From Chitinophagaceae bacterium (GTDB taxonomy: Bacteria; Bacteroidota; Bacteroidia; Chitinophagales; Chitinophagaceae), in NCBI GenBank assembly GCA_023957575.1, contig JAMLGU010000013.1, positions 3,053 to 67,052 on the forward strand: a DNA stretch of 64,000 nucleotides, read 5' to 3'. How positions within the stretch are numbered: the stretch's first letter is position 1; every line of letters starts with the position of its first letter. Under the pieces are notes generated by a model. The model searched no databases, was not told the DNA's origin, and saw only the letters and a list, made by a program, of their open reading frames with translations. The position numbers were made by a program, and so were the translations under genes. Below are positions 2,268 to 40,969 of the stretch, piece after piece.

Positions 2268-3002
2268 TTATTGCTCACCCACAACCTCGCCATTTGCTTT
2301 TTTTACAATTTTTGGATTTCGGATAAAATGTTGAAAGGTATTAAAATTTTTTTGATACTTTTTCTTGTCCAGCTTGTAATAAAAAGCGCCTTTTTTGGAA
2401 TTAGTTTTGTCTTTATCTTTTTGTTTAATCAAAAAACCGGTGGAAAGCAGCTTTCTGGAAAAATTTCCTTTGTCGAAAGTGGTTTCATACACATCCTCAA
2501 AAAGACTCTGTACATGAGGAAGTGTAAATTTTTCGGGAAGCAATTCAAACAAAATCGGATACATGGCCGCTTTGTGCCTGATGTGTTCTTTGGCCATATC
2601 CACCATTTCCTGATGGTCAAAAATTAATTCGGGCGATTCGTTGAGCAAAAACCATTCTGCCTGAAACTCCTCGGTTATTTGTTTTTGATATCTTAAAATA
2701 TCTATTAAAGCCGTGTAGGTAATAGATATTGTGCGCTCCATCGGGTCGCGCTGTGGTTTTGAAAAAGTGTGTAGCTGCTCCAGATACACTCCTTCGAGAC
2801 CGGTCAGTTTTGAAAGCACACGATAGGCTGCATCCTCGGCGCTTTCATTGGGTTGTACAAACCCACCCATCAGGCTCCACCTGTCTTTGGCAGGCTCAAA
2901 AGCTCTTTTAATTAGTAATAGCTTCAGTTTTTCACCATCAAATCCAAAGATGATGCAATCAATGGCGGCAAGTAACCGGGTCTGTTTATTATATTTTGTC
3001 AT
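2268..3002 (-). CDS. araR: NrtR/AraR-family regulator (NUDIX plus winged HTH)
   Basis: AIDCIIFGFD, WSLMGGFV..NES, FDH..M, LPEKFTL, DKGNFSRK motifs; divergent from the ara genes. Confidence 0.85.
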   Translation of the reverse strand: MTKYNKQTRLLAAIDCIIFGFDGEKLKLLLIKRAFEPAKDRWSLMGGFVQPNESAEDAAYRVLSKLTGLEGVYLEQLHTFSKPQRDPMERTISITYTALIDILRYQKQITEEFQAEWFLLNESPELIFDHQEMVDMAKEHIRHKAAMYPILFELLPEKFTLPHVQSLFEDVYETTFDKGNFSRKLLSTGFLIKQKDKDKTNSKKGAFYYKLDKKKYQKNFNTFQHFIRNPKIVKKANGEVVGEQ

Positions 3003-3068
3003 AATAATTCAGTAATCAAAAGTATAGAAATAATATTTATGGTATAAAAATAAAAAATTTTTTCAAAA

Positions 3069-3089
3069 ATATTGTAAAAAATACAATTA
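3069..3089. promoter_or_regulatory. Candidate AraR operator (site 1)
   Basis: atattGTaaaaaatACaatta: ATTGTA-N5-TACAAT palindrome with the GT-N7-AC core of NrtR-family operators, in the araR/galM divergent gap. Confidence 0.55.
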
Positions 3090-3105
3090 TTTGAAATTTA
3101 TTTTT

Positions 3106-3113
3106 TACTTTTG
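3106..3113 (+). promoter_or_regulatory. Bacteroidota -7 promoter element for the galM-tkt-ara genes
   Basis: TACTTTTG matches TAnnTTTG, just downstream of the candidate operator. Confidence 0.4.
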
Positions 3114-3274
3114 GTTCAGAATTCGATTTTTGATTGCTTTTATTAACGTTTGTTGAGAAGTGTTGGCCGTAATAATCAAAAGATTAACTTTACGCAATTT
3201 AAGAGAAGATAGGTTTAGGATGGCTTTGTTTTCAAATAGCAAAAATTATTACTGATTAAAAATTAATTGAAAAT

Positions 3275-8877: not shown

Positions 8878-10368
8878 ATGAAACCATTTAAAAATTTAGA
8901 AGTTTGGTTTGTTACAGGCAGTCAGGACCTCTATGGCGAAGAAACTTTGAAAAAAGTTGCCGAACACTCTCAGGAAATTGCAGCCGGATTGAACGATTGC
9001 CCCATCATCCCTGTCAACGTGGTATTTAAACCTACAGTAAAATCAACTGAAGAAATTTATGCAACCATTGCCGAGGCCAATAATAATACAAATTGCATCG
9101 GTATTATCGCATGGATGCACACTTTTTCTCCTGCCAAAATGTGGATAAGGGGTCTGAGTATTCTCAAAAAACCCTTGTTGCACCTGCACACTCAATTTAA
9201 CAGAGATATTCCCTGGAGCGAAATTGATATGGATTTTATGAACCTGAATCAAAGCGCTCATGGCGACAGAGAATTTGGTCACATCATGGCACGTATGCGC
9301 CTGAAAAGAAAAGTAGTCGGTGGTCATTGGAAAGATGAAAATGTACATCAGAAAATAAATGTATGGGCAAGAGCGGCAGCAGGGTGGAATGATTTACAAG
9401 GAGCAAGATTTGTACGTTTTGGTGACAATATGCGTTATGTGGCTGTTACCGATGGCGATAAAGTGGAAGCAGAGAAAGTTTTTGGCTTTAGTGTAAACAC
9501 ACATGGTATCGGCGATCTGGTAAAAGTGATAAATGAAGTGAGTGAAGCAGAAATTGAAAACCTGATTGCTGAGTATTACGAAAAATATAATGTAGTACCT
9601 AATCTGCAAAAGGGAGGTGAAAAATACGATTCGCTTATAGATGCAGCAAAAATAGAACTGGGTATTAAACGATTTTTAGAAGAGGGAAACTACAAAGGTT
9701 TTTCAGATACATTTGAAGACCTTCACGGTATGAAACAGTTGCCGGGAATAGCAGCCCAACGTTTAATGGGTCAGGGCTATGGTTTTGCAGGAGAGGGTGA
9801 TTGGAAAACTGCAGCTATTGTGCGAGCTATGAAGGTGATGGCTACCGGAATGAGCGGCGGTAACAGTTTTATGGAGGATTATACCTATCATTTTGACCCT
9901 GCCAATCCGTTGGTATTAGGATCTCACATGCTCGAAATTTGCGAAAGCATCGCTGATGGCAAAGCTAACTGTGAAATTCATCCCTTAGGTATTGGAGGCA
10001 AAGAAGATCCCGTGCGCTTAGTGTTTAATGTTGCTGCCGGAGAGGCTTTAAATGCCTCATTAGTGGATATGGGCAATCGATTCCGTTTGTTGGTAAACGA
10101 AGTGCAGGCAGTAGCTCCGGTAGCAGACCTTCCTAAATTGCCGGTAGCAAGAGTATTGTGGAAACCTTATCCTAATATGAACGATGGTTGTGCGGCATGG
10201 ATTCTGGCAGGTGGTGCGCATCATACCTGTTATAGTCAGAACTTGTCTTCCGATTACCTGGAAGATTTTGCAGAAATGGCCGGTATAGAATTTGTGAAAA
10301 TAGATAAAAATACAAACTTGTATCAGTTCAAAAACGAATTGCGCTGGAGCGATATCGCTTATAAGTAA
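8878..10368 (+). CDS. araA: L-arabinose isomerase
   Basis: [55 protein letters not shown] motifs. Confidence 0.97.
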
Positions 10369-10395
10369 ACCTTAAAACTTTTAAACAGGAAAAAT

Positions 10396-12171
10396 ATGAA
10401 TTGGCATTCGCACGAATTTATCTGGCTCGACTGGGTCATTATCATTGCCGGAATCCTTGGCGTGTCTTGGGCTGTTTGGCGTTCTATCGAAAAGGATAAA
10501 CGCAAGCAAAAAGGCGCCGACAGCGAAGACTACCTTTTTGGTAAGGGAGAACCCTGGTACATTATCGGAGCGGCCATTTTTGCCGCAAATATTGGTTCCG
10601 AGCATCTGGTAGGCCTTGCCGGTACAGGCGCTAACGCCGGAGTGGGTATGGCACACTGGGAAATGCAGGGGTGGATGATTCTCATTTTGGGATGGTTGTT
10701 TGTACCCTTTTATCAACTAATGAACACAAAGCTGGGAAAAATCATCACCATGCCCGATTTTTTGAAGACACGTTATACCCATCGTACAGGATCATGGCTG
10801 TCTATAATTACCTTGATAGCCTATGTGCTTACTAAGGTAAGTGTTACCGCTTTTACCGGAGGTATTTTTATGGAGAGTCTGCTGGGTTTGCCATTCTGGT
10901 TTGGAGCCATCGGGTTGATTCTTCTCACCGGCATTTTTACCGTTTTTGGCGGTATGAAGGGAGTGATGACATTGTCAGCCATTCAGACGCCTATACTCAT
11001 TCTCGGTTCTTTTCTGGTGCTGTTTCTTGGTTTGGCAGCGCTTGGCGATGGTAATGTGGGGCATGGGTGGACAGCAATGATGGATTATGCAAGAACCCTA
11101 AATGTTGGAAAAGATGGTGTGGCTTATGGTACCAACCACATGTTCCATTTTGAAACGGGCGATCCGATGTATGATGAATATCCGGGCTTTTGGGTATTTA
11201 TCGGTGCCTCTATAATTGGTTTCTGGTATTGGTGTACCGATCAGCACATTGTACAAAGGGTACTTGGACAAACTAAAGGCGAACCCAATGATGTAGTGAT
11301 GAAACGTGCCCGAAGAGGTACTATTGCAGCGGGATATTTTAAACTATTGCCGGTTTTCATGTTTTTAATTCCGGGTATGATAGCTATTGCATTACAAAAT
11401 AAAGCAGGCTCAGGCTTCGATATGGGATACATAATGAAAGATGGAGCATCTGTTTTGAATACTGATGCAGCTTTTGGATCGATGGTGAAGTTTGTATTGC
11501 CTGCAGGCGTTAAAGGTATTGTTACCATAGGTTTTATTTCTGCGCTGGTGGCATCTTTGGCAGCATTTTTCAATTCATGCGCTACTTTGTTTACCGAAGA
11601 TTTTTATAAACCAAAATTCAAAGGAAAAAGCGAAGCCAGATATGTATTGGTAGGTCGTATTGCTACAATTGTGGTGGTAATATTGGGTATTATCTGGATA
11701 CCGGTTATGATGAGTCTTGGTAGCCTTTATTCTTATCTGCAAGGAATTCAATCTTTACTGGCTCCGGCAATGGTGGCCGTTTTTGTGATGGGAATTTTCT
11801 CCAAAAAAATTACGCCAAAAGCCGGAGAAGCAGGTTTAATAATCGGCTTTCTGATTGGTATGCTTCGTCTGGTAACGAATGTCTTTACGGATACCGGTAA
11901 AAAGGTAATGTCCGGTGGCTTCTGGGATGGCACAGCCTGGTTCTGGAAAACCAACTGGCTGATTTTTGAAATCTGGTTGCTGGTATTTATAATGTTAATG
12001 ATGGTAGCCGTTTCTTTCTTTACGCCCAAGCCCAGCGCCCAACAAATTGATGCCATCACTTTCACCGGTGAGTATAAATCACTCATCAGAAAAAGCTGGA
12101 ACAAATGGGATGTTATCGCCTCTCTTGGCGTGGTAGCCCTCTGTGCTGCTTTTTACTATTATTTCTGGTAA
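10396..12171 (+). CDS. Sodium:solute symporter, probable arabinose permease
   Basis: FAANIGSEHLVGLAG, WCTDQHIVQRVL motifs; many TM segments; last gene of the ara operon. Confidence 0.9.
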   Translation: MNWHSHEFIWLDWVIIIAGILGVSWAVWRSIEKDKRKQKGADSEDYLFGKGEPWYIIGAAIFAANIGSEHLVGLAGTGANAGVGMAHWEMQGWMILILGWLFVPFYQLMNTKLGKIITMPDFLKTRYTHRTGSWLSIITLIAYVLTKVSVTAFTGGIFMESLLGLPFWFGAIGLILLTGIFTVFGGMKGVMTLSAIQTPILILGSFLVLFLGLAALGDGNVGHGWTAMMDYARTLNVGKDGVAYGTNHMFHFETGDPMYDEYPGFWVFIGASIIGFWYWCTDQHIVQRVLGQTKGEPNDVVMKRARRGTIAAGYFKLLPVFMFLIPGMIAIALQNKAGSGFDMGYIMKDGASVLNTDAAFGSMVKFVLPAGVKGIVTIGFISALVASLAAFFNSCATLFTEDFYKPKFKGKSEARYVLVGRIATIVVVILGIIWIPVMMSLGSLYSYLQGIQSLLAPAMVAVFVMGIFSKKITPKAGEAGLIIGFLIGMLRLVTNVFTDTGKKVMSGGFWDGTAWFWKTNWLIFEIWLLVFIMLMMVAVSFFTPKPSAQQIDAITFTGEYKSLIRKSWNKWDVIASLGVVALCAAFYYYFW

Positions 12172-18596: not shown

Positions 18597-19433
18597 TTAG
18601 GGCAAATCAATATTTTCAAGCTTGAAAGGCAGCTTTTTTACGGATTTTGGCGTTTCTACAACGAGTACTAATTTCCAGTCCGGCTTTGGTTTTTCTTCAA
18701 AACTGTAAGAAATCAGGTTGTTCATTCTTGAGCGACCATTGCGTTCGATTTTTTTCCCTTTTGCGTCTTCAAAATACAAATCAGCGAGTTTGGACTGATC
18801 TCCACTGACGTAAAAAGAAACTTCGTTGGGGCTATTTCCCATAAAAGAAAAACTGTCAAAAATTGAAATCAGACCCTCAGCCAATTTCCGGGTTGCTTCC
18901 GGAAGTTTTTTCAACTCTTCCTCCTTTTTGGCATTCTGTTCAGCAGACAATTTCTCCATGGATTCCTTTGTAAGGTAAACCAATTGGAGGTCTGATGAAG
19001 CAGGCAGTAAATTGACATTGGTTTTCGATTGATAATTTGCAATTTTAATAATGGAGCCATTAGCCGTAGTCGGATTAAAAAGTATTAGTTCTCCCGAAAT
19101 TTCCCTTAAAACAGAAGCTTTTCTGGCAGGTATTTTGGTTTCAAATTTTAATATGGCATCTTTATCAATTTTTTCATAATCGTAGTCTTTATCTTCTTCG
19201 CTCAATAAATCAAGCTCCTGGTCATCAGTAACTTTCAGAATTTTGGAGATTTTCACAAATTGGTACTTTCTCAAATCATCGCCCCATACTTTCAATTCTA
19301 CCTCGCATTTGTTGTCAAAAATATCTTTGCCTGTTGAGCGTCTTTCTGTTATTTTACTTACTGAAACTTTTTGAGCAAAGGAAAATATACTCATTAATAA
19401 AAATGAAGTAATCAATAAATAATTAATTTTCAT
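18597..19433 (-). CDS. Hypothetical secreted protein
   Basis: 278-aa ORF with a Sec-type signal peptide (MKINYLLITSFLLMSIFSFA); no family recognised. Confidence 0.75.
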   Translation of the reverse strand: MKINYLLITSFLLMSIFSFAQKVSVSKITERRSTGKDIFDNKCEVELKVWGDDLRKYQFVKISKILKVTDDQELDLLSEEDKDYDYEKIDKDAILKFETKIPARKASVLREISGELILFNPTTANGSIIKIANYQSKTNVNLLPASSDLQLVYLTKESMEKLSAEQNAKKEEELKKLPEATRKLAEGLISIFDSFSFMGNSPNEVSFYVSGDQSKLADLYFEDAKGKKIERNGRSRMNNLISYSFEEKPKPDWKLVLVVETPKSVKKLPFKLENIDLP

Positions 19434-19656
19434 GACTGTGTTTGTTATAGTTAAATGAAATTATTCCTACGAATTTAAAATTGCAAAATTTATTATTCAG
19501 AGTTTTTGGCTATAGTGTAAGCGGCATTTTAATGTTTTAAATTGTCCGGATTTGTTTATTTCATCAAATATTTCAATAATGTAAAAATCGTCCGATATTT
19601 TTACCAAAGTTAGTCATATTATTTAAAAACAGAAAGATCGCAACGATTCCTCGTAT

Positions 19657-20649
19657 TTACACAATCACCACTTTTTCATCCAATGGCTGCCCCGATTCGA
19701 TAGCTGTGAGGCTGTTGAGTGTGGTAACCGCTATTTGTTCCAATGCCTCTTTGGTAAAAAATCCCTGATGGCCGGTGATGATGACATTAGGAAAAGTCAG
19801 CAATCTGGAAATGGTATCGTCTTCAATAATGCTTTCAGACAGATCGCGAAAGAAAATACCTGCCTCCTGTTCGTAAACGTCAATTCCCAGATAGCCCAGA
19901 TGCCTTGCCTTCAGCGATTCTATCACATCCTGAGTGTTGAGCAAACCGCCGCGACTGGTATTGATAAGCATAGCACACTGTTTCATTTTTGTAAGGCTGT
20001 CTTTATTTATCAGATGGTGGGTTTCGGGCAAAAGCGGACAGTGGAGCGACAAAATATCGCTTTGCATCAGCACTTCATCTAAAGGAAGATAATTGACGCC
20101 TTTTTGTTTTAGCACTTCCTGTTCAAAAATATCGTGCGCCAGTACCTGGCAGCCAAATCCCAGCATGATCTCACAAAATGCTTTTCCGATTAGTCCGGTG
20201 CCAATAACGCCAATGGTTTTGCCATACAGATTGAAGCCGGTCAGGTTTTCGATGGAGAAATTGTTTTCTCTCACCCGGTTGTATGCTTTATGTATTTTTC
20301 GGTTGAGAGTCAGGATAAGCGCAACTGCATGTTCAGCCACTGCCTGAGGCGAGTAGGCAGGCACCCTCACCACCCTGATGCCCGATTTTCGGGCAACTTC
20401 AAGGTTCAGGTTGTTGTAGCCGGCGCATCTGAAAGCGATGGCTTTAATATTTAGTTTTTCCAAAGCAGCAATGGCAGTGGAGTTGACTTTATCATTCACA
20501 AAAACACACACGGCGTCAAACCCTTCTGCCAGAATCGCATTGCGGGAATTGAGCTGTTCTTCAAAAAACTCCAACTCATGTCTGCCGTTATTCACTGCTT
20601 CAAAAGAAGCTCTATCATAATTTTTTGTACTGAAAAATGCAATTTTCAC
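19657..20649 (-). CDS. ldhA: D-lactate dehydrogenase (D-2-hydroxyacid dehydrogenase)
   Basis: RCAGYNN, RVPAYSP.AVAEH, GVIGTG.IG, LHCPL, INTSRG, DVYEQE, ITGHQGFFT. Confidence 0.92.
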   Translation of the reverse strand: MKIAFFSTKNYDRASFEAVNNGRHELEFFEEQLNSRNAILAEGFDAVCVFVNDKVNSTAIAALEKLNIKAIAFRCAGYNNLNLEVARKSGIRVVRVPAYSPQAVAEHAVALILTLNRKIHKAYNRVRENNFSIENLTGFNLYGKTIGVIGTGLIGKAFCEIMLGFGCQVLAHDIFEQEVLKQKGVNYLPLDEVLMQSDILSLHCPLLPETHHLINKDSLTKMKQCAMLINTSRGGLLNTQDVIESLKARHLGYLGIDVYEQEAGIFFRDLSESIIEDDTISRLLTFPNVIITGHQGFFTKEALEQIAVTTLNSLTAIESGQPLDEKVVIV

Positions 20650-32644: not shown

Positions 32645-33529
32645 TTATTTCACCTGATGCAGGAAAGCATAAATTGCTTTCAGCTCATCATCTTTAAACG
32701 TAAAGTACTTGTATGGCATCGCATCTGACAATTGTTTTCCATCGGGTCTTTTGCCGGTACGCATTACAGTTATAAACTCTTGTTCTTTCCACCTACCTAC
32801 ATCGCCTGTATGACTGATGTTGGGTATGGCTGGGCCTCCGGGACCTAAAGGTGGCCCGCCTTTGTAATTTTTTGAATGGCATCCCTGGCAGGTGGTGGAC
32901 AGATAGGCGCCATACTCAGGGGTAATTGATGGAATAATTTCATCTACATATTTTGCATTATGATCTATTTGCTCGGCAGGTAATAAAGGAAACTTATCCA
33001 AAAAAACCAGTATTCTTCCTAATGGTTTTATTTCCTTTTTAGGCACTGTATTATCTATCGGAGGCTGATGTTTTACAAAGTTTATAAGTGCGGCCATTTC
33101 CTGGTTGGACAAATGACTCACCTCATGCGAAGGCATGAACCAAACTGATTTTCCTTCCTTATTAACCCCGTGTCTTAAAGTGCGAATCCAATCTTTATCG
33201 GTATATTCTATGCCACCTTTACCATGGGTGATATTGGGTGCTACTAAGGTTCCCAAAGGCGACCCTGGTGGCATAAAAGCCTCAAATCCGCCTAAATTAG
33301 CTCCATGACATCCCATACAACCTCTGTTTTGGGCAATATGTCTTCCTTTTTCGTAAGAAAGTGAATCTGACGGAATCGTAAGATTTTGTACCATTACATT
33401 ATAAATTTTATCGATTCTGTTTTGGGTAGATAGATACACCACTGCATATAATATGACGACCAATATAACAATAGTTAAAAGACTTATTCCTATCCATTTC
33501 AAAACTTTTTTTCCAAATGATTTTTGCAT
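32645..33529 (-). CDS. Membrane-anchored di-heme c-type cytochrome
   Basis: N-terminal TM; CMGCH and CQGCH; APNIT, PNIS and MPY motifs. Confidence 0.88.
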   Translation of the reverse strand: MQKSFGKKVLKWIGISLLTIVILVVILYAVVYLSTQNRIDKIYNVMVQNLTIPSDSLSYEKGRHIAQNRGCMGCHGANLGGFEAFMPPGSPLGTLVAPNITHGKGGIEYTDKDWIRTLRHGVNKEGKSVWFMPSHEVSHLSNQEMAALINFVKHQPPIDNTVPKKEIKPLGRILVFLDKFPLLPAEQIDHNAKYVDEIIPSITPEYGAYLSTTCQGCHSKNYKGGPPLGPGGPAIPNISHTGDVGRWKEQEFITVMRTGKRPDGKQLSDAMPYKYFTFKDDELKAIYAFLHQVK

Positions 33530-33706
33530 TGAATTTTTTTTATTCTTTAAAAAATATTGGTGAAATCTTGTAACTCGAAGCCATTATCTTCTTTCATTTT
33601 ATCTGAATTATGGTTTTTGGTTGCATCATTCCATGCCAAACCAAATATTCATCGTTTCAATTCCTTATTTTTTCTGAAATTAAAACTAACGCATCACATT
33701 GCTTAT

Positions 33707-33734
33707 AAACTTGTAAAAACACGACATTTTTAGC
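33707..33734. repeat. 28-bp direct repeat, copy 2 (upstream of the cytochrome c)
   Basis: Identical to 32534-32561. Confidence 0.9.
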
Positions 33735-33828
33735 GAATCGTTTATATTGTATCAAAAAAAGGCTTTGACAATGTTTGTTGATGCAAATTATTGGATGCTA
33801 CCTGCTGTTTAAATGTTGGTTATAAGTG

Positions 33829-33862
33829 AAAACATCTCCTCCAAAAAAGGAGAAGATGTTTT
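33829..33862 (-). terminator. Intrinsic terminator
   Basis: 14-bp stem aaaacatctcctcc/ggagaagatgtttt, just after the stop at 33872. Confidence 0.65.
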
Positions 33863-33871
33863 ACCGGTCAG

Positions 33872-34405
33872 TTATTTATTTTTTGATTCTCTAAATTTTT
33901 TCTGAATTTTCATTTCCTCTTTTGTTACAATTAGGTTTATATACATTCGGTTGGCCTTCATTTGAAGAATATAAACCGGCATTTCCAAAGCAGGCGCTCT
34001 ATATTCATTAACATAATAAATTTCATACTCGGGAAAGGCATCTTCTACTCTTATTTTCACATCTTCGGATAACAATTCCGGATAGTATTTTCTAAGAGTT
34101 TGAACCCAGTTGCCGTTTTTGTCAAAAGATACTGCGAAGGATTGTTCGGTTTGACCAAAGTAGCCGATTTTTCCACCTTTAACAGATTGCCAACTAACGG
34201 CTCTTGCATTTGGGTAAAACTTTTCCAAATGCACTGCAGTCTTTACCTCTGACTTGGTTATTTTGACTTCCGGAGCCAGATGATTAGTGATTGGTTTCTG
34301 GTGGGGGTTGGATTTCAAAGAAAGTTTAGCAAACTCCTGTGCATGAGTGATAAAAGTGGCGCTCATTGCGCTCATCATTAACGACAAAATTAAATTTGTT
34401 TTCAT
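33872..34405 (-). CDS. Secreted protein, PepSY-like/BLIP-like domain
   Basis: Signal peptide; F..FYPNA..V.W, FDKNGNW, V...FPEY.I pattern. Confidence 0.6.
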   Translation of the reverse strand: MKTNLILSLMMSAMSATFITHAQEFAKLSLKSNPHQKPITNHLAPEVKITKSEVKTAVHLEKFYPNARAVSWQSVKGGKIGYFGQTEQSFAVSFDKNGNWVQTLRKYYPELLSEDVKIRVEDAFPEYEIYYVNEYRAPALEMPVYILQMKANRMYINLIVTKEEMKIQKKFRESKNK

Positions 34406-34516
34406 AATTGGTGTTTTTAATTGATTAAATAGAAATTTATTTTGAAAAGGTGATTAATTTTTACTTCATCTCTGGGTTTGATTTTTATTGTATCCCTTTG
34501 ACGAACCCCATCATTG

Positions 34517-36013
34517 TTATGAGGCTACGGCAGTGTAATTTTGCGGCAGCAGTAGGTGTAGGTCATTCTTAGCTGTAACATTTATCTTCTCAAACAGGTG
34601 AGTCAGCCATTTCTCAGGATTGACACCATGCAGTCGGCAGGTGGCAAACAGACTGTATAACATAGCGGCATCCTGGGCCCGCTCATGGCTTCCGGCAAAC
34701 AGATAGTTCTTTCTGCCTAAAGCCACCGGGCGGATACTGTTTTCAACTAAGTTGTTATCTATCTGCAATTTGCCATCAGTAGTATAGAGGCACAACTTCT
34801 CCCATCGCTTCAGCGTATAGCTTATCGCCTTGCCCAGCTTGGAGAGGATGGCAATGATTTTACAAGAAAATCCTGTAATAGTTTTTTAAGCGCTGTGTAA
34901 GAATGGGTACCGCATGGGTGAATCGGTATTCTTTTATCTGTTCCTAAAGGTAAGGCATTCATCTCTGCAGTGCGCTTCTATTTCGTAGAGTCGCTGTATT
35001 TCTGTCAGTATCTTTTCTGCACCGGCATTATCATAATCTTTTGAAGCGTCATAAAACTTGCGCCTGGCATGTGCCCAGCAGCATAGTGTGGTAACGCCTT
35101 CTACTTTATCGAAGGTTTCGTAAGCATCATAACCGTCTGTTTGAAGGTAGCCTTTAAACCTGTACAACATGCTCTGCGGATAAATAGCGCCTCTGCCCGG
35201 CTGGTAATCGAACAATGCTAACTTCCTGCCTGTATCGTAATACACCCAGTAGTATCGGTGAAGCTGATGCCCTTTTTATCTTTATCTAATACCTTAATGG
35301 TGGTCTCATCTACACCAAGGTAATCAGTGTTCAGAACCTCTTTACAGTGCAGGTTATATACCGGCTCTATAAGTTCATAGCATCCTTTATCCACCCTGAT
35401 ACTGTGTGGTTGATGGTGCATCCTGTCTTTTAAATATCTCAAGCTGACGATAGACTGGCTGGTGATCTACCCATTTGCTTACCAAAAGATGCGTGAGCAG
35501 TATTGGGCGCACGATGGACTTTTCCAAAGGCATGGCCGGCAGAGCAGCTATCACACGCCTGGCATTTTAATCTGTCCTCAGTTATTTCAATATATTCAGG
35601 ACGTACATATTGTTTTCGACAACTCTCGGGCTGATATTCCAATACCTCTTTACTTCACGGCCTACTTCTTTTAAATTACTTACATCTCCATCGGGCTGTA
35701 GTGTGATTCTTCCGCTCACGAAGCCCTTCTGGTAACGGATTACGGCCAGGATGATTTACGTTGAGTCTGGTTTGCTTTTTTTCAAATGATTTTATCAGCG
35801 TGGTTTTTTATCACGGTATGCTCACCAATTTATCATCAGGGAACAAGTCTGGTTGCACCACATTGGTATTGGATGATTGCTGAATAATTTTCTCCTTGCT
35901 GCCAAAGAAGATCCTTTTTTGAGCTCCGCTAACTGTAATTGCAGCGACTGTATCTGTAGTTGTGCTTGCTCGTAAAGGGCTTTATAATCGGTATGTGTAG
36001 GGATTGTCTCGAT
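34517..36013 (-). pseudogene. tnpC: IS66 TnpC transposase, multiply frameshifted
   Basis: Fragments in several frames: DETTIKVL, FDYQPGRG, YLQTDGY, CWAHARRKF, IDNNLVENSIRPVALGRKNYLF. Confidence 0.9.
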
Positions 36014-36093
36014 GAAACAATGTATAGGCAATAAGAATGCCAACAGTTGGCTGCAATGCAGTATTGGCAGTAGTTTCAGCCAATATGGCTGTA

Positions 36094-36715
36094 TCTTCTT
36101 ATAACGGATACTTTTTAATACCACACCGTTTAAAATGTATTGTAACTGATGAGCTGTCATGTTATATCCGATAGCTATCGGATGGCCGGTGTGCTCTGAT
36201 ACCGGTCGCTCAAAAGTGCCACGCTCTAATCCTTTTTCATACAAGGCAAATCCGTCACCATCCCATTGCAACATTTATTTTATTACCCCGCCGACTGATG
36301 AAAATGAATACATCGCCACTACAGGTACATCCTGGTTCATTTCATTACGCACCAAACCGCTGAGCTGTAAGCCCCTTGCCATATCCGTCGGACCAGTGTA
36401 ATAAAAGCGGCGGCAGCTGGTGTGCTCAGAATGCAACGCATGCCGATTAACTTTGATGGTGACTGTATTTATTTCACCGACGAAACTAAGCTGTACGCCA
36501 TTGGGGTAGGTTACCTCAATGGATGAATCTCTGCCTACATGAATCGGAGTGAAGCCTGCAACTTTCCTTTCCGAGAGTTTTCTATGCCAATAATAATAGT
36601 TGGATTTTACTATTCCGTTTTGTGCACAATATTCTGTAACTGTTAACCCGCTGATGCTTTGAGCCTCTATATGTCGCCGCATAACTTTTGCCTTAGAATC
36701 ATTACTAGTCTTCAT
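36094..36715 (-). pseudogene. IS66 TnpA plus frameshifted TnpB
   Basis: TnpA SGLTV.EYC...GI..S.YYYW.RKL; TnpB pieces TDM..G..LSGLV and LQWDGDGFALYEK.LERGTF in different frames. Confidence 0.8.
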
Positions 36716-36906
36716 CCCGCAAATATCAACTTATCAAACTGCACCGAAAATATAGGGTTGGCCGACAGGATACGGTTTTCAAATTATTCTTCAATCGGAT
36801 TAGCCAACCGACCTGATTTTAAGAAAGCAAGTTTCGAATTAACTCAAAACAAGACAATTAAGGTAAAAGTGATTTATATGTAATTCTACTAATCTTGTAA
36901 GTACGC

Positions 36907-37038
36907 CTCAAACGGTTTCCAGCTTTGCGTTCGGGCAGGTTTCGGAGCACAAAAGTTGATATTATTACTAAAGGCCAATTGAAAAACCACACTTGAATTT
37001 AGCACTTCAGCCCGCCTGAGGCAAAATCCTTGTTGGGC
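36907..37038 (-). other. attC-like recombination site (integron cassette type)
   Basis: Minus strand: GCCCAAC (RYYYAAC) 12 nt after the PIN stop; arm ttttgcctcaggcgggc pairs imperfectly with acctgcccgaacgcaaagc; ends at ccGTT (36913-36911); ~132 bp. Confidence 0.65.
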
Positions 37039-37050
37039 AGTCGTTCCTTT

Positions 37051-37533
37051 CTATCCAAAATCAAGAACTCCAAATGTTTCGTTGTATGGTTTGTTCAAGT
37101 CAATAAATTGAAATTTTGGATTTGTATGCTCCTTTAATAAGTTGTAGATTTTCAAACTCTCTGTGTCTGATGAAAGATAAAATTCCACCGATTTTTCGCA
37201 GTCAGCTTGTGCAAACAATTTAGTATCGTTTGGGATAATATTTCTTTCATTCAGTTTAAGTTTCGCTTTGTTTTGAAAAACAATTTTTGCAAATTCTCCT
37301 GTTCGTTTTGAATGGTCAAGATTAAACGGAACAATTTGAAGATTTTTCAATGGCAATTCGTGAATGTCTCCACCAACACAATACTCTGCAATGGAAATTG
37401 TTGAAATCATCATTGTGATTTCGTGTCCAATGAAATAGCGAAAATAATTGTCAGCGTTTTTGTAAAGTGGACTTTCATCATTTAGAAATCGAAGAAAAAA
37501 GCTGGTATCAAGTAATACAGATTTACGCGTCAT
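37051..37533 (-). CDS. PIN-domain ribonuclease (VapC-like)
   Basis: VLLDTSFF, ISTISIAEY, PNDTKLFAQA, YLSSD carry the four PIN acidic residues. Confidence 0.75.
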   Translation of the reverse strand: MTRKSVLLDTSFFLRFLNDESPLYKNADNYFRYFIGHEITMMISTISIAEYCVGGDIHELPLKNLQIVPFNLDHSKRTGEFAKIVFQNKAKLKLNERNIIPNDTKLFAQADCEKSVEFYLSSDTESLKIYNLLKEHTNPKFQFIDLNKPYNETFGVLDFG

Positions 37534-38305
37534 AACCTCCTCTTATTTCTGTTAACCAATTATCTGCATTAATATTTCCAAGCCACGATTTTTTTGCTTT
37601 ATCTCGTAAACTTTTCAAGTATAGTTCATCATATTTAGGTTGATAGTCAACAAGCTCTACAAACTTCAATGTAGATGTATCAATTTCTCCTGTTTCAGAA
37701 TGTTGTTTGCCAGTTGCTCTTATTCCAAGTGTTTTATATAGCAAATTGTCATCATACTCTTCTAAAAAAGTTATTGGTGTTTGAACCCTTACTGTTCCTA
37801 AATCTTCTGTATATATATGAATATTGGCTTTATCTTTTCCTCCAGCATTAGTCACTTTGCCATAAAAATAAAATTCTGCTTCTGCCCAAATTGCCTCTGT
37901 TCGCTTAAATTTTGTTGTTCTATCAACATATACTTCGTTTGTGTTTTCAAGTGAAGTTTTGATACTAATAACGTAGTTTTTCTTTGAAGCAATGTCTTGT
38001 ATGTTTTCAAATGCTTTTGCGGTTGAAAGGTCTAAAAAGTCAATATTTTGAACTTGATTAACTTGCCCAATAATGGCATTGAACCCAATTATGTATTGAA
38101 TTGAAGTTTTCAGAATATGCTTTACTGAGCCCTTTTCAATATTGTAACTTATTGTTGGTCTATCTTTTTTGTCGTTAGGGTATAGAAGGTTTTCTGCGTT
38201 TTCAAGAATTGAAATAATTTCCCGAATATCATAATTGTCAGGTGATAGTTCAAGATTTCCTTTTGAACCACTTATTTTAATTTCTATGTAACCTAATTTA
38301 TCCAC
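37523..38305 (-). CDS. Uncharacterised ~260-aa protein coupled to the PIN gene (GTG start at 38305)
   Basis: Long AT-rich ORF overlapping the PIN start by 11 nt; no family recognised. Confidence 0.8.
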   Translation of the reverse strand: MDKLGYIEIKISGSKGNLELSPDNYDIREIISILENAENLLYPNDKKDRPTISYNIEKGSVKHILKTSIQYIIGFNAIIGQVNQVQNIDFLDLSTAKAFENIQDIASKKNYVISIKTSLENTNEVYVDRTTKFKRTEAIWAEAEFYFYGKVTNAGGKDKANIHIYTEDLGTVRVQTPITFLEEYDDNLLYKTLGIRATGKQHSETGEIDTSTLKFVELVDYQPKYDELYLKSLRDKAKKSWLGNINADNWLTEIRGGYDA

Positions 38306-38347
38306 AATGCAAAATAACAAATAATTTTTTGAAAGTCAGTGTTGTTT

Positions 38348-39582
38348 CAGGGCAGACGCATTAAAAATATGTAGTAATCCACAGGTGTGGAAATAAAGTT
38401 GCTTGTAAATCAAATTGAATACCCGGACTTGCAGTTCCAAAAAGCTATGACAGCCATTATGGAACATTTTGGTCAGTTACCAGATCCGCGAACTAAAGAG
38501 CATAAAATCATTCATAAGCTCTATGACATTGTATTTATTACTATAGCGGCGGTTATATGTGGGGCAGAAGACTGGTATGATATTGAGGACTATGGGGAAG
38601 CTAACCAACAATGGCTTAGCCGTTTTCTGGAACTACCCGGTGGTCTGCCGTCACACGATACATACAACCGTGTGTTTTCGCTATTTGATCCGCAGGCTTT
38701 GCAGCAGTGTTTTGTGGGTTGGGTACAAAGCATTGCCCATATAAGTGAAGGGCAAGTAGTGAGTATTGATGGCAAACAGCTACGCCACAGCGGCGAGCAG
38801 GGAGGTAAAAGCATTATTCACATGGTAAGCGCCTGGAGCAATGCCAATAATATGGTGTTGGGGCGACTAAAAGTAAACGATAAGAGTAATGAGATTACGG
38901 CTATTCCTGCTTTATTGGAAGTATTGATGCTAAAAGGATGCTGGATTACTATTGATGCCATGGGTTGTCAAATCGAAATAGCCAAAAAGATCAGGGAAGT
39001 GGGGGCTGAATATATCCTCGCAGTAAAAGATAATCAAAAGCACCTGAATGATGACATTAAGGAAGCTTTTGCACAGACGCCGCAAACGGCAAGTCATACG
39101 CAATTAAATGTAGATCATGGTCGCATAGAAAAACGTATCTGCCGTATTATAACAGATATGGACTGGATTTGCAGTAAAGATCAATGGGAAGGGCTTCAAA
39201 CCATTATAGAAATAATAAGTGAGCGAACCCATAAAGCGACCGGAGAAAAAGAAAAGCAGGTTCGCCATTATATAAGCAGTATAAAGGCGCCGGCTGAAGC
39301 CTTCAATACTGCTATAAGGGAACATTGGGGCATAGAGAACAAACTGCATTGGGTTTTAGATGTTTGTTTTGGAGAAGATATGAGTACTAAAAGGGCAGGA
39401 ACTGCTGCCGAGAATTTTTCTTTTGTTAGCAAGGTAGCCCTTAACCTGCTCAATCAATCAGAAGAGAGAAAGGGTGGCAAAAAGCTTAGCATCAAACGAA
39501 AAAGAAAAAAGGCAGACAGAGATAAGGATTATTTGTTATCGCTTTTGGCTAAAGCCGGATAACTTTTAATGCGTCTGCCCTG
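38348..39582 (+). mobile_element. ISAs1-family insertion sequence, intact (1235 bp)
   Basis: Perfect 19-bp TIRs cagggcagacgcattaaaa; perfect 10-bp TSD agtgttgttt (38338-38347 and 39583-39592). Confidence 0.95.
38447..39562 (+). CDS. ISAs1 (H-repeat) transposase
   Basis: PSHDT..RVF, IDGKQLR, KSNEITAIP, TIDAMGCQ, VKDNQ, HGRIEKR, HWGIENKLHWVLDV. Confidence 0.95.
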   Translation: MTAIMEHFGQLPDPRTKEHKIIHKLYDIVFITIAAVICGAEDWYDIEDYGEANQQWLSRFLELPGGLPSHDTYNRVFSLFDPQALQQCFVGWVQSIAHISEGQVVSIDGKQLRHSGEQGGKSIIHMVSAWSNANNMVLGRLKVNDKSNEITAIPALLEVLMLKGCWITIDAMGCQIEIAKKIREVGAEYILAVKDNQKHLNDDIKEAFAQTPQTASHTQLNVDHGRIEKRICRIITDMDWICSKDQWEGLQTIIEIISERTHKATGEKEKQVRHYISSIKAPAEAFNTAIREHWGIENKLHWVLDVCFGEDMSTKRAGTAAENFSFVSKVALNLLNQSEERKGGKKLSIKRKRKKADRDKDYLLSLLAKAG

Positions 39583-39639
39583 AGTGTTGTTTGTTGTTTT
39601 GTCAAAAGTTGAATTTTGCCACTGTTTTGGTGGAATGAC

Positions 39640-39646
39640 GCCCAAC
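39640..39646 (-). other. Cassette 5' core site GTTGGGC
   Basis: Matches GTTRRRY and is the exact complement of the GCCCAAC at 37032-37038. Confidence 0.55.
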
Positions 39647-39754
39647 TTGAATAAAGGCGCACTTAATTCAGGTCAATAGGACTGTTAAAATAAAAGCAAA
39701 CGAAGGCATCCAATCAATCGTTAAACCTACGCCTATTATTCACCTAAAAAAGAC

Positions 39755-40969
39755 TTAAGAGTCGTATTCTTTTTTCCAATATTCTGTTTTGCCTGATTTT
39801 ACTGCATTATTTCCCAAATGAACAGAAATTGCGGTTTGTTTGCCTTTTTCGGCATCTGCAAAAACCTTTTTGCCTGTCAATATACTCTCGGCAAAAGCCT
39901 CTAAAGCATAAACGGAAGGGTCTTTTCCTTCGTTATCTGTATATACATTGAGGCCGGTGCCATTATCAAGCGCTTCTTTGGTAGCACCGGTTACGCCGTC
40001 TAAAATGATTTTTTCTTTTTTCTTTCTTTCTACAAATAAGGTAGCCTTATTTCGTCCTACTTCTAAAGTACCCTCATTGCCATAAAGTCTGATACGATAT
40101 CCGTCAAACTCATTACTTAGAATGGATATCACATTCATTTTTACGCCATTAGCATAGCCATAAACGGCATGAACATTATCCCAACAGGTACGCCCGTCTT
40201 TATAAAAATTTATATCTCCCATGGCTGACACTTTTTCGGGGGTAGCGCCTAACAGCCAGTTGACCACGTCAATCTGATGTGATGACAGTTCGCCCAGTAC
40301 GCCACCCGATAAATGCTGGTACATGCGCCAATTTACAATTTTACCGGTTTTTGGGTCTTTACAATACCCTGATTCCCAGTCGGAATTACGATTATACTGG
40401 CACTCGATTCGGGTAATTTGGCCAATTAAATTTTCGGTAATCAGGGATTTTAAGCGAGGAAACATTTCATAATAGCGGTATTGATGCCCAATTTGCAGTA
40501 CCTGTTTTTTTATGCCCTTCATTTTTTTTGCCAGTAATACTGCCTGCTCAATATTGGTGGTCATTGTTTTTTCAAGATAAATGTGCTTACCGGCGCTTAT
40601 GGCATTCATCGCCATTGGGAAATGTTCAAAAATAGGAGTGGTAATAAAAACCGCATCAATACTTTTGTCATCCAGCATCCGACGGTAATCTGTGAAAGAT
40701 GTAGCGTTTTCACCTGCTCTTTTTAATCCACCGGCAAGATTATCGGGCATTATATCACAAACAGCAGAAACATTCAACTGATTGATATTACTGTTTTTTA
40801 TTGTATGTATTAATCCCTGCCCACGGTGCCCGGTTCCAATAAAGCCGACGTTTATGCTGTCTTTTCTATTTTTCAATATATGTATTCCCGAAAAATCGGT
40901 AAGGGCCACTCCCGCCAATCCAAATGCTGAGTTTTTGATAAAATTTTTGCGGCTGATATTTTTTTTCAT
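39755..40969 (-). CDS. Gfo/Idh/MocA oxidoreductase with Tat-like signal
   Basis: ISRKNFIK, GFIGTG.RG, LEKTM, ELSSHQID. Confidence 0.88.
   Translation of the reverse strand: MKKNISRKNFIKNSAFGLAGVALTDFSGIHILKNRKDSINVGFIGTGHRGQGLIHTIKNSNINQLNVSAVCDIMPDNLAGGLKRAGENATSFTDYRRMLDDKSIDAVFITTPIFEHFPMAMNAISAGKHIYLEKTMTTNIEQAVLLAKKMKGIKKQVLQIGHQYRYYEMFPRLKSLITENLIGQITRIECQYNRNSDWESGYCKDPKTGKIVNWRMYQHLSGGVLGELSSHQIDVVNWLLGATPEKVSAMGDINFYKDGRTCWDNVHAVYGYANGVKMNVISILSNEFDGYRIRLYGNEGTLEVGRNKATLFVERKKKEKIILDGVTGATKEALDNGTGLNVYTDNEGKDPSVYALEAFAESILTGKKVFADAEKGKQTAISVHLGNNAVKSGKTEYWKKEYDS

Follow-up and report, generated by a model that had tools for sequence, protein, structure and literature searches.

What kind of unit do two overlapping genes form that lie between an oxidoreductase gene and an IS66-family insertion sequence (IS) in contig JAMLGU010000013.1 of a Chitinophagaceae bacterium (assembly GCA_023957575.1)? 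The stretch analyzed, referred to below as the window, comprises 64,000 nt of this contig (positions 3,053 to 67,052 of the forward strand), and a first-pass annotation made from its letters alone had proposed an integron-type gene cassette with no integrase nearby. That geometry is supported by the present analysis, in which window positions 39645-36913 (minus strand) very probably constitute one integrated integron-type cassette, consisting of a split leader, a 260-aa open reading frame (ORF), an ORF resembling PIN-domain nucleases, and a complete 128-nt attC-type site. The finding of most interest was made beyond the window: a very abundant family of Bacteroidota attC sites, whose arrays adjoin an Xer-like tyrosine recombinase devoid of the I2 helix of integron integrases (IntI).

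On the minus strand the unit opens with GTTGGGC (39646-39640) and closes with GCCCAAC (37038-37032), located exactly 12 nt past the stop codon of the PIN-like ORF and followed by an imperfect palindrome that ends in GTT (36913-36911); direct reading of the sequence bears out each of these annotated positions. GCCCAAC corresponds to R'' and GTT to R', with 128 nt counted from the G of the former to the last T of the latter. The crossover point is placed between G 39646 and T 39645 (written G/TT here), and TTGGGC(GTCATT) is that portion of R' which the cassette takes along and which pairs with the cassette's own R''. Inverse cores are therefore seen on circularization, where R'' GCCCAAC faces an R' (G + TTGGGC) that reads GTTGGGC. 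The integrated R' reads GTTTGAG, which had been listed as a departure from GTTRRRY but is merely the start of the following sequence, as expected for an integrated cassette. The reported similarity of the ends beyond the core is also present, the reverse complement of GTTGGGCGTCATT being AATGACGCCCAAC, to be compared with AACGACTGCCCAAC at the opposite end. Subtraction of 1245 bp (the ISAs1-family element in the leader and one copy of its target duplication) from 39645..36913 gives the cassette length of 1488 bp, as first calculated.

Complementarity between a cassette's two own ends is found family-wide. A crossover between G and TT would leave each cassette with 5' bases fitting its own R'' and not the R'' of the site ahead of it. 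Among 104 cassettes with a family site on either side, the 7 nt past the upstream GTT and the 7 nt preceding the cassette's own AAC are complementary at 5.35/7 positions on average, with 42 perfect matches and 29 at 6/7, whereas the two ends of one same site match at just 2.95/7 and shuffled partners at 2.92 +/- 0.12 (maximum 3.30 in 2000 shuffles). This own-end rule is the geometry that defines integron cassettes, and it excludes both terminator-like repeats and transposons bounded by terminal inverted repeats (TIRs). It is extremely unlikely, then, that the 128-nt elements are repetitive extragenic palindromic (REP) or terminator-like sequences without a role in mobility and the module an ordinary horizontally acquired islet, even though the sites always lie just past stop codons, in gene orientation, and have unremarkable folding energy. 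Terminators cannot yield complementarity between the start of a cassette and its own R'', neighboring cassettes vary while the cassette itself stays identical, in five contexts the arrays are found to one side of a recombinase gene that is divergent from them, and no Rfam family (Rfam has none for attC) matches within 33500-40500.

The boundaries observed in relatives coincide with GTT. On the left, homology of the window with its closest relatives, loci L034 and L036, starts exactly at GTT. On the right, locus L008 is 100% identical to the window over 1455 nt (38376-36922) and, past ...aaccGTT, continues into a different unit that carries an OMP_b-brl gene and its own ends, GTTGGCTGTAATGGC and GCCACTACAGCCAAC. 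Metagenome contig pieces that stem from other copies of the site terminate at 36911, immediately after GTT, and at 37034, in the AAC of R''. The homologous block generally begins with GTT, 3-4 variable bases, and (G)GTCATTC, a motif kept 4-5 nt past GTT in dozens of loci, and it terminates with GAACGA..., variable bases, and AAC. In L043, L052, and L104 the GTT of the module is directly preceded by ...cccgcccgaacgcaaagcc(8-10 nt)GTT, the 3' half of a site homologous to that following the PIN-like ORF in the window. The array in L043 reads ORF(423 aa)-site-[module]-site-ORF-site-ORF(315 aa)-site; L052, L071, L082, and L234 contain 4-9 same-strand sites each, and tandem same-orientation arrays occur also in L126, L156, and L193, among others. 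The window itself holds a single unit. In L034 (1719 onward) and L036 (7274 onward), where protein identity is 94% and 91%, R'' is kept and no recognizable complete attC follows, which suggests decay of solitary copies.

These boundaries also bear on a reading of the module as a cargo transposon, or an element akin to miniature inverted-repeat transposable elements, with ~14-nt TIRs (GTTGGGCGTCATT ... AACGACTGCCCAAC) and a downstream 128 nt of unrelated intergenic DNA. Inverted repeats are indeed kept at both module ends in many loci, including the solitary L034 and L036 copies that have no recognizable complete site after them. Identity between the window and L008 nevertheless spans the whole 128-nt site up to GTT, and in arrays the 3' half of a site stands directly before the GTT of the module. 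The same end rule, moreover, governs 104 unrelated cassettes whose "repeats" differ, and the unit has neither target duplications nor an associated transposase, such that a transposon origin is hardly credible.

The integron-type reading draws further support from the distribution of the site. The window contains 10 copies of the 7-mer GCCCAAC where 6.7 are expected, which is not beyond chance, and judged from the window by itself the unit might have been coincidental; the complete site, in contrast, far exceeds chance. A profile of seven sites gives a single nhmmer match in the window (37044-36909, E 3e-33), and the covariance-model search called for at the outset, run with a family-specific model of 15 full-length sites and a hand-drawn structure, scores the window site at 91.3 bits (E 3.5e-18; next hit E 0.58) as the sole hit in 64 kb. 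Sibling sites beside other short gene units, a further proposal of the first-pass annotation, were located 235 times across all loci, many of them grouped in arrays on one strand. From R'' to R' they measure 128 nt in 136/235 and 127-129 nt in 198/235, AAC and GTT are invariant in the family alignments, and the sites on one contig share a strand, runs of 2-6 being common. At least 120 metagenome contigs, which come from sludge, lakes, sediments, and soils, contain an exact 28-mer of the 3' arm. The family is found in at least five orders of Bacteroidota. The 128-nt site thus belongs to a very large Bacteroidota-wide family, the arrays of which carry restriction-modification, nuclease, toxin-antitoxin-like, and nucleotidyltransferase (LinB-like) cassettes. 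In activated-sludge metagenomes the sites reach thousands-fold contig depth; over 36872-36995 it amounts to 984-8141x in three of four activated-sludge or wastewater runs (98x in the fourth), as compared with 5-30x for the cassette genes. Three outcomes had been named beforehand as speaking against a cassette, namely an absence of similar elements elsewhere, breakpoints away from G/TT, and a site with no attC-like stem. All three were checked, and each result favored the cassette interpretation, that on the stem through covariation and not through energy.

The family sites share a common layout. On the 5' side, R'' (xxxxAAC) is followed by 1 unpaired nt, an 11-bp helix (e.g. CGGGTTTTGCG with CGCAAAGCCCG), a 4-5 nt bulge, and a 5-bp helix (GCGGG with CCCGC), after which come an AT-rich middle of ~70 nt, the return strands, 5 unpaired nt (AAACC), and GTT. 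In the window the L'' helices are TTTGC(C) at 37025-37020 and GCGGG at 37015-37011, preceding an AT-rich variable middle; the L' helices lie at ~36939-36934 and ~36929-36924, followed by a 10-nt spacer and R', and the 3' end reads ...gcaaagctggaaaccGTT (36913-36911). In an alignment of the arms of 16 sites, pairing within the hand-drawn R and L helices holds for 71.7% of cells, as against 29-46% with slid partners, and their covariation score of 0.191 (at most 0.114 for slid partners) is matched by only 7/500 shuffles, with double changes in 12/23 helix pairs. Fully compensated L boxes are seen in L089 (TATTGCCGC with GCGGCAATA), and in L244, which also bears a short 57-nt site, they are replaced yet complementary (GGGTAT..ATAGGGC/GCCCTA..ATACCC). 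A mimic of the circular junction, composed of the window site and the first 14 nt of the cassette, closes with a 14-bp stem in both the minimum-free-energy and the centroid structure (GGAATGACGCCCAAC with GTTGGGC(A)GTCGTTC, plus the L helices), at -18.1 kcal/mol vs -11.8 for the integrated form. An R/L stem is thus supported in the site by covariation between sequences, not by energy, and the ~130-bp imperfect palindrome of the first-pass annotation finds backing in the former respect and none in the latter. Folding energy never beats shuffles and was dropped as a criterion, the structure itself being retained. With respect to the palindromes of attC sites (PMC5027507), the R and L helices covary, but energies are unremarkable and the spacer geometry is non-canonical. 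The 9-10 nt spacer, noted earlier as a departure from the proteobacterial attC consensus, is real and proves to be a normal trait of the family.

What enzyme might act on such sites is suggested by arrays in other genomes. A 274-aa tyrosine recombinase (PF00589 + PF22823) is encoded divergently from the arrays in L218, L238/L239, L234, L242, and L244, in the order recombinase, ~100-170 bp, G/TT, first cassette, attC, and homologues in the same layout are 67-83% identical. The start codon of the L218 recombinase gene (2355-3179) lies ~100 bp from ...ttcgtaaataaattaG/TTAGCAGCC; the R'' of the first cassette there, GGCTGCTAAC, is perfectly complementary, and two family sites follow on the opposite strand. 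The boundary in L242 is ...ttcgtaaataaatgaG/TTAGCCGTC, with a restriction-modification cassette whose GTTAGCCGT is paired with ACGGCTAAC, and in L244, where the boundary is similar, GTTAGGCACA is paired with TGTGCCTAAC, the first-cassette R'' being perfectly complementary in both, as in L218. In L238 (246-1028) and L239 (195-977) the first position is taken by a cassette for a LinB-like nucleotidyltransferase (PF21418; site E 8e-36), an enzyme of the lincosamide-resistance type. The 542-kb contig of L234 has two such genes, of 274/275 aa, at 10001-10825 and 19299-20126, 9 kb apart, each with its own opposite-strand array of six and three sites, respectively. The attI-like G/TT next to a divergent recombinase (TTCGTAAATAAATKAG/TT) occurs in relatives only and is absent from the window.

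The 274-aa enzyme is not a canonical IntI, judging from its sequence. It scores 178 bits against TIGR02249 (cut-off 265) and 215 bits against the XerA model NF040815 (cut-off 220), and its best solved relative is an archaeal XerC-like/XerA structure, 4a8e (E 3.9e-36). Residues 3-177 and 200-271 align to chain residues 3-180 and 246-317 of VchIntIA (PDB 2a3v), leaving 22 residues where IntI has 65; the chain residues skipped, 181-245, are the IntI-specific insertion region. An IntI with this additional domain (I2 helix) is found neither in the window nor as the array-adjacent enzyme of relatives.

Two further observations concern genes next to family sites. A family attC also stands just 3' of the recombinase gene in L244 (6263-6395), L245 (2673-2805), and L234 (11093-11228), and the recombinase gene is in that sense bracketed by recombination sites. 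Among the cassettes of L234 are an MvaI_BcnI endonuclease and a D12 methyltransferase.

Tyrosine recombinases beside attC in L124, L172, and L204 were considered as integrases as well and rejected, each being followed by a Y2_Tnp/Zn_Tnp_IS91 transposase. These two-gene units of the IS91 family abut the R'' side of family sites (L124 5377-7355, L172 565-2609, L204 412-2279), with a junction, ...ggttttGTTC/AAC, conserved in the three independent contigs. The R box of attC may be a preferred target of IS91-family units. The same adjacency is what speaks for movement of the cassettes by IS91-family elements themselves (tyrosine recombinase plus HUH Y2 transposase), with the hairpins serving as ends. 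This is very unlikely, since just 3/235 sites are involved, the junction ...GTTC/AAC fits ordinary IS91 target preference acting on the R box (IS91 elements prefer GAAC/CAAG targets), and rolling-circle transposition does not predict a G/TT crossover with own-end complementarity.

Under the integron-type interpretation, and by extension of the integron paradigm, the site would fold as single-stranded DNA, with R'' (GCCCAAC) pairing with an R' formed by G and the TTGGGC carried at the cassette's own 5' end and with the L'' and L' boxes pairing in turn. A tyrosine recombinase would cut between G and TT, and the cassette would be excised as a circle with the junction ...GCTGGAAACCG/TTGGGCGTCATTCC, to be re-inserted at another G/TT. 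Both the single-strand folding and the exact cleavage position are drawn from analogy. The mobilizing enzyme, we infer, would be the Xer-like recombinase of 274 aa that adjoins arrays in other genomes, and not an IntI with I2.

Several observations weigh against this interpretation. No tyrosine recombinase is found in the window, as originally noted: a tyrosine-recombinase profile hidden Markov model run against all six-frame ORFs gives a best E of 0.099, and a regular expression for box II has no match. The partner site on the upstream side is no attC and bears no obvious likeness to attI. The window's own pair, GTTGGGCGTC/ACTGCCCAAC, agrees at 4/7 positions ungapped, or at 12/13 aligned positions with one bulge. 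Inside the spacer, just before aaccGTT, a 4-nt patch distinguishes L008 from the window (cccg at L008 1456-1459, tgga at window 36918-36921), and it is not explained by a single crossover at G/TT. The 146-nt site region folds no better than shuffles on both strands (z +0.9, +1.5), the L008 form of the site no better on either strand, and the circular junction not significantly so (z -0.4); RNAalifold on a MAFFT alignment of the arms returns no consensus pairs, MAFFT misregistering the bulges. The IntI-specific insertion is held essential for recognizing folded attC sites, and a single-strand mechanism is an extrapolation since the 274-aa enzyme lacks it. Finally, no empty site, excised circle, or contig skipping the cassette occurs in the assembled contigs of eight runs, which drop rare variants.

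The comparison with an empty site that had been proposed therefore yielded none. Such a site would read CCTTTATTCAAG/TTTGAGGCGTAC, with the junction CCTTTATTCAAGTTTGAGGCGTACTTAC, and exact-protein look-ups of the flanking oxidoreductase, all of which end in the ISAs1 element, provide no example, nor do the contigs of the eight runs. Upstream of the cassette, 109 intergenic nt separate it from the GFO/IDH/MocA oxidoreductase gene (40969-39755, minus strand) and run up to ...ttattcaaG/TTGGGCGTCATTCC, and this junction is fixed in every contig with that gene and identical in 135 contig blocks. Proteins encoded nearby are labeled Niabella sp. and Sphingobacteriales bacterium in related metagenome-assembled genomes, in line with a Chitinophagaceae-like host from activated sludge. 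In the contigs of the eight runs the 137-nt segment past the crossover is always contiguous with attC, and no alternative junction at 36910/36911 exists for it. The segment represents the original target or, alternatively, the beginning of a next cassette since lost; within the 64-kb window there is no R'' that matches GTACGCCTCAAAC, the sequence following the cassette. The window copy is solitary and, because its upstream partner is ordinary intergenic DNA 109 bp past the oxidoreductase gene and there is no second proper site, it is probably trapped and immobile now, although its attC is intact.

The first-pass annotation had regarded the unit as a solitary cassette, or one of the type known as CALIN (attC sites clustered with no integron-integrase), at a secondary site. 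Its solitary state stands, but a secondary site is not established, a remnant of an array being equally possible. Under the latter history, the cassette is real and is the survivor of a longer array or platform cut by IS66- or ISAs1-mediated rearrangement. The IS66 element lies only 137 nt past the crossover, without a target duplication, and its far flank differs between the window and L018-L020; the flank upstream of ISAs1 differs in L021, and in L008 the identical cassette is followed by another. The upstream junction, by contrast, is plain intergenic DNA after a conserved core gene in all 135 contig blocks; neither an attC half nor an attI-like TTCGTAAATAAAT motif precedes the cassette, and a second site is not returned by the covariance model anywhere in the 64 kb. 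We consider a remnant possible but somewhat doubtful, and it would leave the integron-type nature of the cassette unchanged.

The cargo of the cassette is widely shared. The exact product of the 260-aa ORF is already on record, with 1883 homologues, of which the best 120 are >80% identical and extend across Bacteroidota orders, and the PIN-like ORF invariably follows it. In 80 species-level genomes from at least five orders (among them Chitinophagales, Flavobacteriales, Cytophagales, Sphingobacteriales, and Bacteroidales), the 260-aa protein is 74-94% identical and lies between differing core genes. It has no match in Pfam, PADLOC, NCBIfam, or PHROGs. Its AlphaFold model has a predicted local distance difference test score (pLDDT) of 66.5, and Foldseek matches are weak (E > 1e-3) and mostly to oligonucleotide/oligosaccharide-binding (OB) folds (RPA32/14, Stn1, SSB); the C-terminal half is possibly an OB-like beta-barrel, according to this model. 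The PIN-like protein of the window matches PF01850 at 19.4 bits (E 0.0017), below the Pfam cut-off of 23.6, and 41/44 orthologues match it at E <= 0.01 (best E 2.3e-5), with D9, E50, and D103 invariant; a profile search of the PDB found no solved relative.

The pair would be of toxin-antitoxin or defense type, in which a PIN nuclease is joined by a nucleic-acid-binding partner and has its own promoter. At the position of the promoter-like stretch ttatttgttattttgca, many relatives read TACCTTTG, in agreement with the Bacteroidetes -7 motif, TAnnTTTG, and the stretch is a putative promoter of the 260-aa ORF on sequence grounds. As one of the most widely shared cassettes here, the pair is a candidate addiction or defense module. 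It resembles the VapBC-type PIN cassettes of chromosomal integrons in having two overlapping genes borne as a single cassette, the second PIN-like with conserved acidic residues, and differs from them in its upstream partner, which has 260 aa, no family match, and a possible OB-like fold, in place of a small antitoxin of ~80 aa.

Comparison with canonical integrons, both class 1 mobile integrons and sedentary chromosomal integrons such as the Vibrio VCR arrays, places the cassette close to known cassettes and attC sites, the features of which are described in PMC5027507. Common to both are one or more ORFs followed by an imperfect-palindrome site with RYYYAAC and GTTRRRY cores, a G/TT crossover that leaves each cassette with its own R' tail at the 5' end, arrays of one orientation beside a divergent tyrosine recombinase, an attI-like G/TT by the first cassette, a site length inside the known 57-141 nt range, and toxin-antitoxin-like cassettes with their own promoter. 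The family departs from integron attC sites in its almost fixed length of 128 nt, in L boxes conserved in sequence across the whole phylum, in a strongly asymmetric central unpaired region (~1 nt vs 5 nt), in the 9-10 nt spacer before GTT, and in a long AT-rich middle that adds no folding energy; its recombinase lacks the IntI insertion. As in CALINs and single attC sites (PMC4889954, PMC9024848), one attC and its cassette are found with no integrase within 10 kb or, here, the 64-kb window, IS elements adjoin them, and the same origins are proposed (secondary-site insertion, intI loss, rearrangement). The short, "simple" Xer-type recombinase without an I2 helix also recalls Xer/dif systems and the pdif modules of Acinetobacter, in which recombination sites likewise enclose small modules of genes, toxin-antitoxin pairs in many cases. 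The dif and pdif sites, however, measure 28 bp, are double-stranded, and alternate in orientation, unlike the 128-nt hairpin-type sites here, which all have one orientation and follow the integron-type own-end rule.

Integrons are regarded as largely proteobacterial, and the I2 insertion is thought to have enabled the recombination of single-stranded attC sites by IntI. Tentatively, and at slightly less than even confidence, the cassette can be assigned to an integron-like system that spans the phylum Bacteroidota (and Ignavibacteria-related bacteria), with nearly fixed 128-nt sites and a 274-aa Xer-like integrase without I2. If so, folded sites would be recombined independently of I2, or the system would be a relative of the ancestral state preceding IntI, and it would have been missed by integrase-based surveys, or filed only as CALINs, despite extreme abundance in wastewater. 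Neither a description of such a system nor a link of such enzymes to Bacteroidota arrays was found in the literature searched. IntegronFinder omits single-site elements by default, and in complete Bacteroidetes genomes IntegronFinder 2.0 reported nothing but In0 elements apart from a single complete integron, that of Salinibacter (PMC9024848). Detection anchored on integrases would undercount cassette traffic in wastewater Bacteroidota. How Xer-like enzymes became integron integrases is a long-standing question (PMC4792948, PMC7790495). If the 274-aa recombinase does mobilize these cassettes, integron-type recombination does not universally require the I2 helix, and the question of an origin from Xer becomes directly testable.

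Coordinates of the cassette and adjoining features in the window
Feature	Positions	Strand	Basis or remark
Left cassette boundary, G/TTGGGC	39646-39640	minus	Read from sequence; homology with L034 and L036 starts at GTT
Cassette 5' leader, first part	39584-39645	minus	Opens with conserved GTCATTCC motif
ISAs1-family insertion in leader	38347-39583	plus	Transposase ORF 38387-39562, plus strand
Cassette leader, second part	38306-38346	minus	AT-rich promoter-like stretch ttatttgttattttgca directly before start codon
260-aa ORF	37523-38305	minus	GTG start; alternative TTG at 38320; no known family matched
PIN-like 160-aa ORF	37051-37533	minus	11-nt overlap with 260-aa ORF; stop TAG 37053-37051
attC-type site, 128 nt	36911-37038	minus	nhmmer, covariance model, covariation, repeat boundaries, circular-junction fold
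Single-copy segment past crossover, 137 nt	36774-36910	minus	Begins TGAGGCGTAC
IS66-family element, frameshifted	34487-36773	minus	Bounds interpretable context; outside cassette

Two insertion sequences lie in or near the cassette. The element in the leader has 20-nt perfect inverted repeats (38347-38366 and 39564-39583) and a transposase with DDE_Tnp_1_assoc and DDE_Tnp_1 domains, which place it in the ISAs1 family, and its target duplication, aaacaacact, is found at 39592-39583 and 38347-38338, overlapping the outermost base of the inverted repeat. Metagenome contigs break inside this element and end at 36773, the edge of IS66. In one assembly, L021 (1-3950), the flank upstream of the same ISAs1 element and cassette differs from the window (39584 onward) and contains ribosomal protein L25, DUF488, and other genes, the change falling exactly at the ISAs1 inverted repeat. 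The IS66 element, frameshifted in the window, is intact in L018-L020, where TnpC has 500 aa (L018 1917-4105), and L018 encodes intact TnpB and TnpC. Its far flank is a 177-aa ORF in the window and DUF2141 with an ACR_tran pump gene in L018-L020. The differing far flank, together with the absence of an 8-bp target duplication of IS66, suggests that the region was rearranged through the IS or that copies of the IS were joined in assembly.

A different arrangement of the module is seen in a Bacteroidales lineage (L026, L027-L029, and L040), in which it is flanked by a 63-bp direct repeat (L026 ~9700-9770 and 11400-11470). Modules of this type are then followed by a strong 125-nt palindrome, cgtgctaaaaagtatagggg...cccctacactttttagcacg, the sequence of which is unrelated to the site family.

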